In this document: in pieces, positions 54,755-61,735 of the stretch | Layout of the letters: each line of letters opens with the position of its first letter | Numbering within the stretch: the stretch's first letter is position 1 | Origin: an uncultured Thermoleophilia bacterium | GTDB taxonomy: Bacteria > Actinomycetota > Thermoleophilia > UBA2241 | Length of the DNA: 64,000 nucleotides | Direction of reading: 5' to 3' | Assembly: GCA_963715985.1 (NCBI GenBank) | Contig: CAVQSP010000009.1 | Coordinates: 32,001 to 96,000 of the forward strand | Translations under genes and position numbers: made by a program | Notes under the pieces: generated by a model | The model's database searches: none | What the model saw: the letters and a program-made list of their open reading frames with translations, nothing else | What the model was told of the DNA's origin: nothing

Positions 54755-57700
54755 GTGACGGGTCCCGGGCCTCTCTGCGCCTCCTGTGGAGCAGGCCTTC
54801 CCTCCGGTGCCCGCTTCTGCCCCTCCTGCGGCACGGCGCTCGTCGAACGCCCGAGCGCAGCGACGGAGCGCAAGGTCGTCACGACGCTCTTCGCAGACAT
54901 CGTCGGCTTCACGGCGCTCAGCGAGCAGTTCGACCCCGAGGACGTCGACGCCGGGCTGCGGGGTTACTTCGAGATGGCGCGGGCGACCGTCGAGCGCTTC
55001 GGTGGCAGCGTCGAGAAGTTCATCGGTGATGCCGTGGTCGGCGTGTTCGGCATCCCCACCGCTCATGAAGACGACGCCGAGCGCGCGGTACGGGCGGCCC
55101 TCGCGATCGTCGAGGGCATGGCTTCTCTCCCCCAGGTCGGGGACCACGCCCTGCAGGCGCGCGTCGGTGTCAACACAGGGCGCTCCCTTGTACGCCTCGA
55201 TGTGTCGTTCGGCTCCGGTGAGGGAGCGCTGGTCGGCGACGCGGTGAACACCGCCGCCAGGCTTCTCACGGCGGCGGCACCTATGAGCGTGGTCGTGGGC
55301 AAGCTGACACGTTCCCTTTCCGCGCGCGCCATCGAGTACGACCAGCTCGATCCGGTGACGGCCAAAGGCAAGTCCCAGCCTCTCGACGCTTGGCTCGCCA
55401 GGCGACCGATAGCCCGGCGCGGATCGACGGCCGGGGCGTGTCGCTTGCGCCACTCGTCGGCCGTGAGGTCGAGCTTGCCGTGCTCGAAGGACTGCTCGCA
55501 AAGGCCATCGCTTCTGCGACGGCCCAGTTCGCGCTGCTCGTCGGCGAGGCCGGCATCGGGAAGTCGCGGCTCGTTACCGAGTTCTTCCGGACGCTCGACG
55601 AGCGTCCGGGTTTCTTCTGCACCTGGCGACAGGGCCGGTGTCCACCCTACGGGGAGGATCTCGCCTATTGGCCGCTTCGCGAGATCGTCACTGCACACGC
55701 CGGCATCCTCCAGACAGACCGGCCTCATGTCGTCGAGAAGAAGCTCCGCCGGGCTCTCGGCGACATCGCCGATCACGAGTGGATGGTGACGCGCCTGCTT
55801 CCTCTCGTCGGACTACCGGCGGCACAGACCGAGCACGACGACAACTTCGCGGCCTGGCAGCTGCTCCTCGAGGGAATCGCCAGGAGGCAGCCCACGATCG
55901 TGGTCATCGAGGACATCCACTGGGCGACAGAGGCCACGCTCGCGTTCCTGGGCCACTTGATCCGAGGTGCGCCCGGCGTGCCCCTCCTATTCCTCTGGAC
56001 AGCCAGGCCCGAGTTCTTGAAGGCCCACGCCGAGTTCGCAGACACGTAAACGTGGTCACGCGCATCGATCTCAGGCGTTGGCGCGGCCGAGTCAGTCGAC
56101 TCGCAGTCCACCTGGCCACAGTGCGTGGCAGAAGCCACGTGGCGAAGGTGGTCGCTGAGGCCTGCGGTGGCAATCCCCTGCTCGCTGAGGAGCTGGCGTG
56201 GTACTTGGAGGACACGGTCCCCAGTCCGAAGAGAGAGTCAAGAATCGCGCCGCCGGCACGCCTTCCCCGACGCCAGAAGGCATCACCGCGCTGTCGGCGG
56301 CAGGCTCGACGCCCTCCACGCGGCGGAACGGGCGCTGCTCCTGGAAACAACGTCCTGGAGGTGTTTGGCCGGGTGCTGTCCAGCGGCGGATTCGGAAACT
56401 GCCGGCCTGAGCCGTTGCTCGACAGTCTCGTGAACCGCGAGTTCGTGGTACCCCGGGCCGCGTCGACACTGGCGAGCGAGGCCGAGTACGCCTTCCGGCA
56501 CGCCCTCACGCGGGATGTCGCCTATGAGCAGCTCACGCGCGACCGGCGCGCGCGCAAACACGCCCGAGTCGCCGGGTGGATCGAGACGGTGGCGCCACCC
56601 GGTGGCCTTGCGGACCTGCTTACGTACCACTACGAGGCCGCTCTCGACCTGGCCGTCGCTACGTCCGACGATGAGCTCGCCTCCGCCCTCATGCCGTCGA
56701 CCGCAAGCGCCCTGGAGGCCGCGGGCGATCGGCGTTCGCCCTCGACGTCGCCACCGCGCAACGGCGCTATTCGCGGGCTGCGGCGCTCGTCGACGCGCAC
56801 GAGGCAGGCAGGGGCCGCCTTCTGGGCAAGTGGGCGGACGCCCTCTGGGAGAGCGGCCGCGAGAGGGAGGCCCTGGACCGGCAAGACGAGGCTATCGCGG
56901 CTCTGGAGGCCGAGGGCCGCGAGGAGGAGGTGGCACTCGCGAGGACGGGAGGTCGCTCGACGGTTCGAGGTGGACAGCGGCGAGTGGCCGCGGCTGCCTG
57001 GGATCGCGGACGACCTGCTCCGGGACGGCAGCGAATCGGCCGGGCTCATCCCGTTGCTCGAGTACTGGGCCTACGTCTGCTTCTTCCGCGGCGACAGAGC
57101 GGCCGGCATGGCGGCCGCGACCAGAGCCATCGAGGTCGCGGCTCGGCTCGGCCTGCCCGCGTCCGTGAAGGGGCTCCGCTGAGGGGCGTCGGGAGGTGCG
57201 AAGACGGCGACCCGGCGGGGTTCGACGATCCTGCGTCCGCGTGGAAGAGGCCCACCACCGCGGCGCTGAGCGCTACGCGGCGTCGGTGAACATCAACCTC
57301 GCGGAGCAACTGTGTGCGACACGAGGACCTGCGGCGGCGGCCGAGATCTGCCGTCAGACCGTGGAGTGGGCACAACGGCGACACGATGGCTCTTCAGCCA
57401 GCGCCGCGTCCGCCGACCTGGCCTTCAACCTGCTCTGGTGCGGTGCGTGGGACGAAGCACTCGAGCTCACGGAGGCGCTCGAACCCCTCCTGGAGCAGCG
57501 GCGCCTCGAGGTCCTCGGCTTCGTCAGAGCCTCTTCAGCTCTGCTCCGGCTGCTCCGGGGTCGCCTCGACGAGGCCGAACTCCTTGCCGAAGCGGCCGAG
57601 GCGTTCTGCAGACCGCTCAAGCGGTTCGAGACCCGTAGTGTGAGCCTGCTGGCCCTGGCCATCGTCGAGATGAATGGCGACTTCGTCCAGGCACGCTGAC

Positions 57701-58134
57701 TCTGCGCGAGTGCGTCGAGCTGGAGGGAGGAGGCCGCGCACTGCCCGAGTACACACTACCGCTCTCGTGGGCCTGCCGGGTCGCCGTCAAGGCCGGCGAT
57801 GAACGACTGGCGCTGAGATTGACCGACGGCCTCGGTCCCCGCCCGCTCGATCGCTGCGTGCGGGCTTCGCTGGCGGCGACACTCGCGAGCGCGCACGGGG
57901 ACCCTACGGCGATTGACCAGTACGCCGACTCGGCCCGCCGCTGGGGGGAGCTCGGTGTGCCCTACGAACGCGGATGGGCGCTGCTCGGCCGGGCGCGAGC
58001 CCTCGCCAAGAGCGCGGGCGGGCGGGGTGCCGAGGACGATCTGCGCGCGGCCCATGCCGTCTTCTCCGCGCTCGGAGCCACACCCGCGCTCACGGCCGTC
58101 GAAGAGCTGCGGCACGCCCTCAGCGGACGTCTAG
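54755..58134 (+). CDS. Zn-ribbon + class III adenylate/guanylate cyclase + AAA (STAND-like) NTPase + TPR-like protein; many frameshifts (errors or pseudogene)
   Basis: CASC...FCPSCG; LFADIVGFT, EKFIGDAV, GDAVNTAARL; GEAGIGKSRL, IEDIHWA; GGNPL, YAFRHALTRDVAY; PYERG...GR. Confidence 0.82.
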
Positions 58135-59939
58135 GCGAACAGCGCGAGACCGAGATACTGTCTCCCGACTGCGCCATGACCTTGAGCGAGACAAACCTCG
58201 CGAGTCGTTCGTCGAGGGTGTGCGCGCAGTCGGCGAAGCGGTCGCTGACGAGCCCCTCAAGCTGCTGGCGAGTGCGATCCGTCGCTGGCTCTGTAGATCG
58301 CCTCGTCACACGCATCAGGACGGCATCGGGGCGGTCGCAACGTCCGGATTCGCAGCGCGAGGCCGGCATCCGATTCTACCGCGCGGAGCTCTCCCTCCGT
58401 GCGGTGCCCGGCACGCCAGTCGTCGACTGCCTCGGTCAGCCGCGCGAGGTACGGCGAGGAGACGGACTGGTACTGTGCGTCGTCAGTGAAGAACAGGGCG
58501 ATCCGGGCTCAGGCTTGCCGCCGGGAAGGGGTACAGGTGCCGGTAGGGCGTCAGCGGGCGCAGGCGGTGCAGACCGTAGAGGGCGGGCTGCGCGAAGTAC
58601 GGACTGAAGCGAGGCACGAGCACGGGCCCGAGCTCCGACGGGGGCGGCAGGAATCTCACGGACCGCAGGAGATCCCAGGTCGCCGCGTAGTCCCCCTCAC
58701 TCTCCCGCGGGAACCCGCACAACATCGGCCAGCTTGGTTCCAGGCCGGACGCCCGGCACCACTTCAGGAAACGCAGGTTCTCCAGGCTCGTCGTCCCCTT
58801 GTTGGTACGGGCGAGGATGGTGTCGCTGAGGCTTTCGATGCCGCATTGCAGCTCGATGCGGGCTTGCCGCGCGAGATCCAGGATCCTCTCGTGACATCGT
58901 CGCGCGGACCTGGATGAGGAGCGGGACCGGCAGAGGTTCGTCGGCCAGCTCGGGCAGCACCCTGGAGAAGAAACTGGGCGGGACGACCATGTCGACGAGC
59001 TCGAGGTAGGACGCGTTGTTGGAAGCGGTGAGGAGCCGCGACTCGGCGAGGAAACGATGTGGTGATTTGGCCCGGTACGTGGTCCTGCTCCCATTGAGGC
59101 CGCAAAACGCACACGGGCTCTTCGCGGCCCACCAGCAACCGCGGGAGAGCTCCATCGCCAGCGCGGGCACGAACTGGTGCGCGTAGCCTGTCTCTCGCAG
59201 TTGCCGAAATACTCCGCGAAGTCCGGAGCGGGGAGCGTGTCAAGGTCAGGGACGACGACGGCCGAGCCTGTCGAGCGGGACCGGCCGCCGATCCTGTGGA
59301 CGACGCCCCGTATGCCGGGAATGGCTCCGGAGTCATGGTCGCGCAGGGCGCGGATCAGAGCAGGAAAGGAGACGTCCGCCTCGCCTGAGCACACGACGTC
59401 CACGAAGTGGAAGCGACGGTGCAGCTCGAGCCCCATCTCCCCTTCCCAGTTGCGCCCGCCGAACACGACGATCACGCGCGGGTGAGCTTCCTTGACGCGT
59501 CGCGCGAGCGCAAGTGACGCGAGGTTCTGACCGGAGTACGACGTGAAGCCGACGACGTCGTAGTCTCCCCACGGAACATCCGCCGCCAGCGACTGGACGA
59601 AGGTCTCAGCCCGCTCGCGCACCTCGAGCACCCATCGACGATGGCGCGCGGCAGCTTCCAGGTTCCGGAGAGCACCTCATCGACGTATTCGCGCCAGTAG
59701 CCATGCTGGGAACCATACAGGCTGCGCGCGAAGACCCATTCGGCCGCCAGCGCCCGCCACGAGATGCCCTCCGTCATGAAGCGATACTCCGGCAGTCCGA
59801 TCGTGCGCGCGAACGCGATGTTCGGGTAGAGGACGGAGCAAGACACTCCGGCGGCCTCCACCTCGGCCTTCAGGAGGCTGACGCCGAGGGCGGGTCGCTC
59901 GACGTCGGCAAACGGCATGCAGACGAGGGCGACGTTCAT
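58131..59939 (-). CDS. B12-dependent radical SAM C-methyltransferase of RiPP-maturation type (TIGR03975/PoyC-like); several frameshifts
   Basis: LVCMPFA...PALGVSLLKA, EWVF, VGFTS..GQN.ASLALA, FGG.N.EG.MG, SGEAD, PDF..YF, SRGCWWAAKSPCAFCGLNG (CX7CX2C), Q.GIESLS, GFP.E, RFSPYF. Confidence 0.85.
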
Positions 59940-60003
59940 CTCTCGAACGCGCCGTTGGGACGCCGCCCCGATCGCCGAATCGGCGCGTCTTTCGGGCAGA
60001 GCC

Positions 60004-60372
60004 TCAGATGTGGTAACGCCTGGATTCGACCTTGGCCAGGCGTGGGTCCGGCTCCTCGAGCGCGCTCATGGCCTGCGCCGCGGGCCGGGCAACGAGCGTG
60101 GTCGTTCTCAGGAGACCCTGCCGCGCCACGTAGTAGACGAGCTGCAGCATCGCCTCGTCGTGCAGCGATGATTGCACATGATGACGTACTCCCATTCGCG
60201 AGTGCCATATCAGCGCTGTCGATGTGACCGTCAGAGAGCTTCAGAAAGCAGCCAGCGACCCGGTGCAGGACCCCGGCCGGACCGTCTCGAGCGCGCCCTT
60301 GTCGGTGAGCTTCATGAGCACGATGTACCCGGGCTCGTGCACGTCAGCCGTCTGTGTGGGAACCTCTACCAT
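60004..60372 (-). CDS. GYD-domain small protein (about 124 aa) with N- and C-terminal extensions; about three compensating frameshifts
   Basis: After AAGGAGG: MVEVPTQTADVHEPGYIVLMKLTDKGA...(G)EWEYVIM...HDEAML...QGLLRTTTL...EEPDPRLAKVESRRYHI; start and stop are in the same frame. Confidence 0.72.
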
Positions 60373-60428
60373 GTCGCATCCTCCTTCTTCGTTGCAGAAC
60401 CGATGTGGAGCAGGAGCGCCCGGCCCGC

Positions 60429-60457
60429 ATTACATGACGTCGTCCGAGGTCAGTCAA
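60429..60457 (-). promoter_or_regulatory. SigA-type promoter of the GYD-rSAM unit
   Basis: TTGACT (60457-60452), 17 nt, TGTAAT (60434-60429). Confidence 0.65.
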
Positions 60458-60504
60458 CGTCGGGCCAGACCGCGCCCGCCGCGGCCGCGATGGCACAGCG
60501 CGGC

Positions 60505-61735
60505 AGCTATCCCGGCGGTCCAGCTCGTCCGCCAGCTGCTCCACGAACAGACCCACGTCGGTGACGATGCCGATGGCCTGGAACGACCCGCGGTCGGCGA
60601 GCTTGGTGACCACCGCGGGATTGATGTCGGCGCACACGGTGCGCACGCTGGCCGGCAGCATGTTGCCCACGGCGATGCTGTGCAGCATCGTGCTCAGCAT
60701 CAGGCAGGCGCCGGCCTCCTGCGCGTACCGGCGCATCTCGCGCTGGGCCGCCATGGAGTCGGTGATCACCTCGGGCAGGGGGCCGTCGTCGCGGATGCTG
60801 CCGGCGAGCACGAAGGGCGTGCCCGTCTTGACCAGCGTGTACATGAGGCCGCCGGTGACGATGCCCTGCTCCACGGCGGCGCGGATGCCGCCGCAGCGGC
60901 GCACCGTGTTGATGGCGCGCAGGTGGTGCTCGTGGCCGCCCTGCACAGCGGCGCCCTCGGTGAGATGGATGCCGAGGGAGGTGCCGAAGAGATCCGCCTC
61001 GATGTCGTGCGTGGCCACGGCGTTGCCGCCGAACACGGCGCCGATGTAGCCCGCCTCGATGAGGCGGGCCAGTTGTGGCGCCGCCCCGGTGTGCACCACG
61101 GCCGGGCCGACCACGGCGATGGTGAGCCGGCCCTCCTCCTTGACCTGGCGGAGGATGTGCGCCACCTCGTGCACGATCTGGGCCTTGGGCTTCTCGCTGC
61201 TCACAGCGGAGGCCATGAACTCGAACGGCTGGCTCTCGCGCGACCGCGCCAGAGGCAGCACGCGGATGCCGCGGTGCCCGGTGACGAAGAGGTCCTCGCC
61301 GCGCGCGTCGTTCATGGCCACGGTCTCCGCCGTGCCGGCAGCCGGGTCCACGCGGATACCGCAGTCCATCTCCGGGTGTGCTACGCGAATCCAGTCCCCG
61401 GCCACGCGCACGAAGGTGACGAGGTTGGTGGTGGAGTAGAAGCGCTCGGGGAAGACGCCGTCCAGGCCGGAGGCCTCGAGGACGGCGTCCTGCGGCCGCA
61501 CGGCCACCACACCGTAGTCGGTGATGGCCGTGAGCAGCTCGTCGAGGTGCGCGGCGTCGCGCCCGAAGATGCGCATCACGGCATTGGAGGGGTCGTTCTT
61601 CATGCGCCCGACCTCGAACGACAGCATCTCGAACTCGCCCTCGAGATCCATGACGCGGTCCATGATCTGCGGCATCATCAGCGAGTCGATGAGGTGGCCC
61701 TCGATCTGGACGTCTTCATACGGCAGGTCGGGCAT
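60505..61735 (-). CDS. TIGR00300-family protein (ornithine cyclodeaminase-like, ArgZ/AgrE C-terminal type); stop probably near 60507, ORF reads on to 60344
   Basis: GHLIDS, FYSTTN, EMDC, FEFM...SSE, ATHDIE, LAGSIRDDGPLP, TMLHSIAVGN. Confidence 0.88.

Follow-up and report, generated by a model that had tools for sequence, protein, structure and literature searches.

Radical S-adenosylmethionine (SAM) enzymes of the family TIGR03975, named 'RiPP maturation radical SAM C-methyltransferase' in NCBIfam (RiPP, a peptide that is made by the ribosome and modified after translation), occur in proteusin-type pathways, in which the precursors carry NHLP or Nif11 leaders. PoyB/PoyC and the bottromycin C-methyltransferases are presumably further kin of the enzyme considered here. 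We describe a pair of adjacent minus-strand genes in a 64,000-nt stretch of DNA, hereafter the window, from an uncultured Thermoleophilia bacterium (assembly GCA_963715985.1, contig CAVQSP010000009.1, positions 32,001 to 96,000; genome of 22 contigs, 70% G+C, 88.8% complete, 7.3% contamination). The first gene encodes a small protein of the GYD type, a domain that is widespread and, to our knowledge, has no known function; the second encodes a cobalamin-dependent enzyme of the TIGR03975 type. The locus resembles the proteusin pathways in its enzyme family, here with a B12 domain, a CX7CX2C core and a domain like the RiPP recognition element (RRE), and in having a candidate substrate encoded directly upstream, whose N-terminal part is sizeable and folded or conserved and whose C-terminal part varies. 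Unlike in the proteusins, the upstream protein is a GYD domain, neither NHLP nor Nif11; the conserved unit is without a Gly-Gly type cleavage site, protease, epimerase or exporter; the tail is short (~6-30 residues); and the whole cassette is hypervariable within one genus.

The methyl-coenzyme M reductase C-methylases MgmA and Mmp10 provide a precedent for C-methylation of a full-size protein rather than a released peptide. Their fold is shared by the modelled enzyme of locus L012, an intact relative of the window pair (MgmA, Z 22.7 over 359 residues; Mmp10, Z 10.7), and TIGR04014 matches the L012 enzyme weakly (E 1.2e-5). The relationship is distant, with 9-16% identity in the structural alignment. 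The archaeal enzymes act on one fixed conserved target residue, whereas no conserved target position is visible at the present locus, where the partner gene is adjacent and fast-evolving.

The first-pass annotation of the window had described a promoter, a strong ribosome-binding site, a gene of about 124 aa with a GYD pattern, a spacer with hairpin potential and a radical SAM gene. In window positions, the elements are the following.

60373..60457, minus strand: upstream region with the ribosome-binding site AAGGAGG and the letters TTGACT (60457->60452), N17, TGTAAT (60434->60429)
60372->60004, minus strand: GYD-like gene of ~123 codons, matched by tblastn to the L012 GYD protein
59940..60003, minus strand: GC-rich spacer of 64 nt between the GYD-like gene and the radical SAM gene
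59939->58131, minus strand: cobalamin radical SAM gene of the TIGR03975 type, split into 7 frame pieces, starting MNVALVCMPF... and ending at a TAG stop (58133-58131)

The ribosome-binding site is present as annotated, at 60386->60380, with a 7-nt gap to the ATG at 60372, and the stop codon of the small gene occupies 60006-60004. The letters of the TTGACT-N17-TGTAAT promoter were also found, but a promoter scan of 57800-60800 called 0 sites, because TGTAAT lacks an A at position 2. The spacer has the annotated length of 64 nt, although its hairpin potential is at chance level (z +0.59; 145 of 200 shuffles fold at least equally well); at other loci, the spacing between GYD gene and enzyme ranges from ~4 to 117 nt.

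The small protein has the N-terminus MVEVPTQTADVHEPG and a tail ending in PDPRLAKVESRRYHI, and reads ...EWEYVIM... at the GYD-family motif. Its pieces are ~39% identical by tblastn (E 3.5e-18) to the GYD protein of L012, a locus from a same-genus genome (69% DNA identity) in which an ornithine cyclodeaminase, a 117-126-aa protein and a 604-aa enzyme are all open frames. The L012 protein matches Pfam GYD PF08734 at 36.4 bits (cut-off 31.4), whereas the window's own broken pieces returned 0 Pfam families and a PF08734 scan across the window's genome missed this copy; the GYD label of the window gene is therefore drawn from its orthologs. Judged through them, the repaired gene is GYD-like, as the first-pass annotation had it; of the extra sequence noted there at both ends, the N-terminal extension and a related tail are common to L012 (...VEPGRYHANN) and the window (...VESRRYHI).

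The annotation of the second gene as a radical SAM enzyme with a cobalamin-binding region and a CX7CX2C motif was borne out. The motif reads CWWAAKSPCAFC, and TIGR03975 matches the window enzyme in four pieces (145.9, 122.9, 90.8 and 67.8 bits; model positions 1-478), none of which exceeds the cut-off by itself because of frameshifts; the remainder was recovered by tblastn. The pieces are 62-71% identical across most of their length to the L012 enzyme, which scores 540.2 bits against TIGR03975 (cut-off 281.85; model positions 1-606). All 142 enzymes in an alignment have the cluster cysteines C267, C275 and C278. The Pfam B12-binding match of the L012 enzyme (27.3 bits) falls under the 32.1 cut-off, and the modelled residues 1-200 align to corrinoid-binding domains with Z 9.3-9.6. 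In an AlphaFold2 (AF2) model of this enzyme (pLDDT 94.8), the core aligns to OxsB, MgmA, TokK, CysS and TsrM (Z 20-23, with 22-23 for the first four), and residues 516-593, of beta3-alpha3 secondary structure, align to TbiB1 (5v1u_A; Z 8.8, rmsd 2.1, 75 of 84 residues), a lasso-peptide leader-binding RRE whose structure was solved with its leader. The model thus places an RRE-like domain at the end of the L012 enzyme, and leader binding is predicted for it. By its family name, the window enzyme would transfer a C-methyl group to an unactivated carbon. When the L012 enzyme was co-folded with its GYD protein, 4Fe-4S and SAM, the score was 0.01-0.02, the mark being 0.32, which is uninformative either way. 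The window's genome carries a second, intact TIGR03975 gene (L003, C11:538451-540298, 549 bits), ~30-38% identical to the window copy and without a GYD-like open reading frame (ORF) upstream; comparable unlinked paralogs occur in other genomes of the genus.

The pairing recurs in other genomes. A GYD-like ORF lies directly upstream of the enzyme, on the same strand, in 8 of the 9 same-genus loci first examined, the ninth contig ending short. Across 54 genomes of one uncultured Thermoleophilia genus, that of the window, GYD genes were found in 41 and TIGR03975 matches at E <= 1e-30 in 22, and the pairing is present in at least 12. By coordinates, the two genes adjoin each other in 10 genomes; the window adds to that number, as do G058:C6, which is divergent, and one contig that is cut. 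In a scan of one genome per species, GYD was upstream in 9 of 79 loci, all nine labelled as the window's genus or Thermoleophilia, and 11 of 80 metagenome loci had the same arrangement. Apart from L012, three of the four linked GYDs tested pass the PF08734 cut-off (L029, 83.0 bits; L042, 61.7; L067, 44.6) and one lies under it (L039, 21.5). The GYD-linked enzymes form one clade with SH-aLRT 99 (17 of 83 rows; 33 of 71 rows in a second tree) in quick IQ-TREE searches, for which the unlinked paralog of the window's genome served as root. We conclude that the GYD-enzyme pairing is a conserved and previously undescribed association.

Some of the recovered loci have individual features. At metagenome locus L105:4964-5293, a second GYD-like gene (tail ...PRHHTGKRHH) lies between the enzyme and a cyclase-AAA gene. 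The public titles of L021 and L088 name Deltaproteobacteria and Alphaproteobacteria, respectively, and these labels look unreliable: L021 and L012 are one and the same contig, which comes from a same-genus genome, and at L088 the flanking genes for a substrate-binding protein and a cyclodeaminase share 92-94% identity with their counterparts at a GYD locus of the genus.

We propose that the two genes form a cassette in which a divergent GYD-fold protein serves as dedicated substrate, or precursor, for the enzyme whose gene follows its own, and receives the methylation in its tail. We give this proposal an even chance of being correct. The enzyme would dock the GYD protein through its C-terminal RRE-like domain, and the radical generated from [4Fe-4S] and SAM, together with methylcobalamin, would place one or more methyl groups on unactivated carbons. 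The likeliest site would be the variable C-terminal tail, often ending Pro...His-(Arg/His/Lys). The product would probably remain a modified intracellular protein, since the conserved unit holds no protease or exporter. The role of substrate, already suggested by the first-pass annotation, has gained comparative support from slot swapping, the RRE-like domain and the tails; binding, methylation, the site and the role itself are what we infer from this comparison of sequences.

The tails of the linked GYD proteins were compared with those of the free GYDs of the genus. In the AF2 model, the GYD protein has a beta-alpha-beta-beta-alpha-beta ferredoxin-like fold followed by a C-terminal helix (pLDDT 87.6), and the confidence drops to ~69 over the last 18 residues. 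G52 and D55 of the G-x-x-D motif are invariant in 22 linked GYD proteins. A His within the last 8 residues is present in 15 of 24 linked GYDs versus 0 of 33 free ones, and a P-x(0-3)-H-[RHK] tail motif in 9 of 24 versus 0 of 33. The free GYDs (n=33) are of two conserved types, ending ...KLP or ...YRPPGA. By the His counts, the linked tails are distinctive, with the limits discussed below. Pro-richness showed no clear difference by eye between linked and free tails and was not used. A likeness between the GYD C-terminal helix and the acidic tail of the S8 proteins described below was also noted by eye only and was given no weight.

The position upstream of the enzyme is not always filled by a GYD gene. 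Nested in the GYD clade, three genomes carry in this slot a 43-aa Pro-rich peptide with its own ribosome-binding site, and two carry a ~125-aa protein with a Pro-rich tail.

L220-L222 (context L223, L224), genomes G021:C9, G066:C3 and G044:C105: 43-aa peptide loci
L210:831-1193, plus strand: ~125-aa slot protein, no Trypco1 PF19493 match at E <= 0.01
L212:1941-2327, minus strand: ~125-aa slot protein, Pfam Trypco1 PF19493 at 28.0 bits (cut-off 24.6)

The 43-aa peptide occupies the site that the GYD cassette has elsewhere, with the cyclodeaminase on one side and the regulator on the other. Its core, residues 6-40, reads TLRPSPHRPPEPPEPPEPGRPNPHRPPEPPEPPEP and is identical in the three copies, which differ almost entirely at third codon positions; the peptide is a twofold repeat of PHRPPEPPEPPEP, with PHR present twice. 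In the sister clade, which spans many phyla, the upstream gene encodes a 570-680-aa S8 peptidase (49 of 83 rows), a subtilase PF00082 (74.7 and 88.2 bits) whose C-terminus bears 5-22 PIxP-type repeats and an acidic tail 'LSxEDVxxLExLI'. This S8-PIxP system is like the GYD cassette in having a same-strand upstream partner with a Pro-rich C-terminal region and enzymes that are 35-44% identical to those of the GYD clade; it differs in the subtilase partner, in two conserved downstream genes, in the absence of a convergent cyclase-AAA gene and in a much slower divergence. The swapping of partners in the same slot argues that GYD is no general cofactor or helper of the enzyme family, and suggests that the upstream position behaves like a substrate slot open to different proteins and peptides.

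The S8 operon was seen at L023-L099 and at many of L102-L179 (for example L036:2263-3984 and L025:1908-3809), in Acidobacteriota, Chloroflexota, Deinococcota, Nitrospirota, Pseudomonadota and Actinomycetota, including cultured Solirubrobacter, Kribbella, Nonomuraea and Deinococcus. The S8 protein has a Lys-rich N-terminus and no obvious signal peptide. Two further same-strand genes follow downstream in 24 and 25 of 38 loci, and the product of the first is weakly pro-kumamolisin-activation-like, under the cut-off.

Several results count against a substrate role for the GYD protein. Every GYD-linked case falls in one genus, so that shared descent explains part of the recurrence. The His feature is absent from 9 of the 24 linked tails, no residue is conserved solely in linked GYDs, the invariant Gly and Asp being the family motif, and the Fisher p-values for the tails overstate the case, the motif having been chosen post hoc on sequences that are related. 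Pfam found nothing meaningful in the C-terminal 109-121 residues of the enzyme. The enzymes beside the 43-aa peptide (522-525 aa) are without the RRE-like domain, which is the opposite of a simple prediction that the RRE reads the peptide. The nearest solved relatives of the GYD profile are stand-alone RAM/AsnC domains (2djw, E 1.2e-4), and these ligand-binding relatives make a sensor or regulator role possible. The window's genome contains a Nif11-type leader, and its rpoB and rpoC are unbroken, unlike the genes of the pair; both findings are taken up below.

An alternative is that GYD is an accessory or regulatory partner that controls or assists the enzyme, either a RAM/ACT-like ligand-binding module or a chaperone, and that the true substrate is elsewhere: a small molecule, the cyclase-AAA neighbour or a peptide encoded apart from the enzyme, for which the Nif11-type precursor on contig C14 is an example. 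In addition to the RAM/AsnC matches, Foldseek on the GYD model returned only generic ferredoxin-like folds (TM ~0.5), among them the ACT-like folds of Lrp, NikR and MgtC, and the lack of a linked-only conserved residue leaves the protein without a mark of a modification site. Other authors have judged clusters called by the antiSMASH TIGR03975 rule to be likely false positives (PMC9426513). However, the slot of the sister and nested enzymes is taken by other proteins or by a short peptide in place of GYD, which indicates that GYD is not needed for the enzyme chemistry, and an RRE-like domain is typical of peptide and protein maturases. We regard the accessory alternative as unlikely.

The search for a conventional precursor also speaks to this alternative. 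The Nif11-type leader is the single match in the window's genome (C14:147059-147253, 47.5 bits, cut-off 32.3), but contig C14 carries no TIGR03975-like match. An NHLP leader search of the same genome gave 0 matches, and was also empty in every control genome. An NCBIfam scan of the L012 GYD protein, including NHLP TIGR03793 and Nif11 TIGR03798, gave 0 families. A search for a hidden Pro-repeat precursor in window positions 57001-61000 and at 22 GYD loci gave none upstream, and the few matches were off-frame GC-rich noise. No leader peptidase or exporter was found in the conserved co-varying unit, made up of the partner gene, the radical SAM gene and the convergent cyclase-AAA gene, which is flanked by the ornithine cyclodeaminase gene and unrelated genes. 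The first-pass statement that precursor, protease and exporter are absent thus holds for this island and for the two leader families, a scope short of the whole 64-kb window for which it was made. On the matters that could be run and that might have overturned the first-pass annotation, namely recurrence, GYD-likeness and a true precursor elsewhere, the results all fell in its favour.

In the window, the pair is broken by frameshifts. The GYD-like gene reads in frames 0->2->1->0 as four pieces, each shift being one missing base (near 60280, 60212 and 60175). The frame of the enzyme shifts near 59636, 59210, 58895, 58508, 58275 and 58157, and the convergent regulator gene (54755-58133) is broken into several frames as well. 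It could be argued from these breaks that the island is dead in this organism and that the GYD, radical SAM and regulator genes are pseudogenes, a view that is compatible with any functional reading. The GYD and radical SAM genes together have at least 9 frame changes, with further ones in the regulator; rpoB (1260 aa) and rpoC (1423 aa) are unbroken open frames in the same genome, so that the frameshifts are local to the three genes and could be real decay; and split copies exist in two other genus genomes (G016 and G064:C2:111814-113662). Against this, a public short-read contig matches 57983-58238 with 0 mismatches in 256 of 256 aligned bases and adds three letters absent from the window exactly at frame breaks (AG behind 58122, G behind 58157), and a second public contig adds a C behind 60280, inside a run of four C. 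The three shifts in the GYD-like gene are all single missing bases, and there are neither in-frame stops nor large deletions within the frame pieces of the GYD and radical SAM genes. Since the public contigs show indels without substitutions, local consensus error is favoured; these contigs span parts of the stretch, and most break sites fall outside them. No public sequencing run contained more than 0.10 of the sampled words from the window. We consider local assembly errors more likely than decay, and a dead island somewhat doubtful. At 60344-60510, the cyclodeaminase ORF overruns the stop of its relatives (...ADELTR*) by ~55 codons, pointing to a further indel where the island begins to border on its flank.

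The pair that the first-pass annotation described is real, but a third, co-varying gene, as well as the wider partner swapping, had been overlooked. This third gene (REG) encodes a protein with cyclase and AAA domains and faces the enzyme, and the cyclodeaminase gene (OCD) lies on the other side of the pair.

54755..58133, plus strand, convergent: REG, a Zn-ribbon, class III nucleotide cyclase, AAA_16 protein of ~1100 aa, in ORF pieces (C9:86773-90127)
60344..61735, minus strand: OCD, nickel-pincer-nucleotide-dependent ornithine cyclodeaminase (TIGR00300, 512 bits)

The domains of REG were taken from the ortholog at L042, where the Zn-ribbon, class III cyclase and AAA_16 domains are followed by ~700 further residues. 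Within the genus, the median identity is 91.2% for OCD (21 pairs), versus 45.6% for the radical SAM enzyme, 30.8% for GYD and 41.6% for REG (15 pairs). Wherever a GYD-clade locus has enough flank, REG lies next to the enzyme in convergent orientation, and the peptide and Trypco1-like variants are no exception. REG was not found at S8-clade loci, and outside the GYD clade was seen only at 25-30% identity in L091 and L092, which are on one contig. The distances of the radical SAM enzyme and REG correlate (r 0.73, n 11, p ~0.001; r 0.48, n 19), and both are uncorrelated with those of OCD (r 0.03 and -0.08), with the Mantel signal leaning on a few close pairs in one genus. The REG family has at least 8 paralogs at ~40% identity in the window's genome. 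Four to five REG-type paralogs form a tandem array at C13:648688-663715, each ~40% identical to a relative's island copy, and others lie on C10, C15 and C18. On a coding measure derived from GC3, the values of the GYD, enzyme and regulator genes are low relative to the flanks (L022, L029 and others), and L022 and L029 have cyclodeaminase-GYD gaps of ~0.8-1 kb containing ORFs without Pfam matches.

This arrangement raises the possibility that the functional unit is the three-gene island of partner, radical SAM enzyme and cyclase-AAA protein, acting in conflict, defence or kin signalling. The enzyme would then mature a small effector or ligand, the STAND-like cyclase would be the sensor or trigger, and methylated GYD would be a means rather than an end. 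The contrast in identity between OCD and the three island genes, the constant adjacency of REG and the correlated distances are consistent with such a unit, as is the one slot protein (L212) that passes Trypco1. Trypco1 is equated with Pepco in the introduction of a 2025 preprint (PMC12642450), whose abstract places Pepco among protease-unleashed latent death effectors. Kaur et al. 2020 (PMC7159879) predict that a radical SAM gene modifies a peptide effector in NTP-dependent conflict systems of multicellular bacteria. On the other hand, the many REG paralogs at ~40% indicate that island divergence may be ordinary for the family, the adjacency of REG may be inherited synteny within one genus, and only 1 of 2 Trypco1-like proteins passes the Trypco1 cut-off. 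In PADLOC, REG resembled Pycsar cyclases only in a generic way, and neither GYD nor the radical SAM enzyme had a match. A conflict or kin-signalling island is, in our judgement, decidedly improbable.

The NTP-dependent conflict systems of PMC7159879 have several features in common with the island: modules for a cNMP cyclase and a STAND-like NTPase, a small protein of Trypco1 type, strong diversification and a radical SAM gene. The radical SAM example of that paper comes from ternary systems with FtsH and vWA, and no vWA, MoxR or FtsH part was seen at the present loci. The GYD island also differs in having no peptidase, and 'GYD' does not occur in the paper.

A more specific form of the island proposal is that the three co-diversifying genes are a new conflict or kin-recognition module, in which the methylated tail would be a ligand or latent effector read by REG and answered with a cyclic nucleotide, the types being kept like those of pherotype loci. 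The swappable small cytoplasmic protein of such a module would have the GYD fold, the Pepco/Trypco1-like fold or the form of a 43-aa peptide. We think this quite unlikely. The comQXP locus of Bacillus and agrBDC of Staphylococcus likewise combine a modifying enzyme and a small precursor among three adjacent genes that diverge together between conserved flanks. Unlike in those systems, neither export nor a membrane receptor is evident here, and the third gene encodes a cytoplasmic Zn-ribbon, cyclase and AAA_16 protein.

A literature search returned nothing that joins the GYD domain with radical SAM enzymes and nothing relevant for GYD with RiPP or for PF08734; supplements, which lie outside such a search, may list clusters. 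A search for a system of S8 or subtilisin with a radical SAM methyltransferase also gave nothing relevant. In the papers found, TIGR03975 occurred only as an antiSMASH rule (PMC9426513) and in one expression note.

If the GYD protein is indeed the substrate of its neighbouring enzyme, a folded carrier of a radical-SAM-methylated tail would be the first functional assignment for the GYD domain, and GYD would be the third protein-type 'leader' after NHLP and Nif11. B12-dependent C-methylation of whole proteins would then extend beyond the archaeal enzymes that act on methyl-coenzyme M reductase. The partner swaps among GYD, the Trypco1-like protein, the 43-aa peptide and S8-PIxP are a natural experiment on recognition by TIGR03975 enzymes, and they suggest that TIGR03975 matches dismissed as false RiPP clusters may have overlooked protein substrates. 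The three-gene island, finally, allows a possible link from RiPP-like chemistry to STAND/cyclase signalling to be put to the test.

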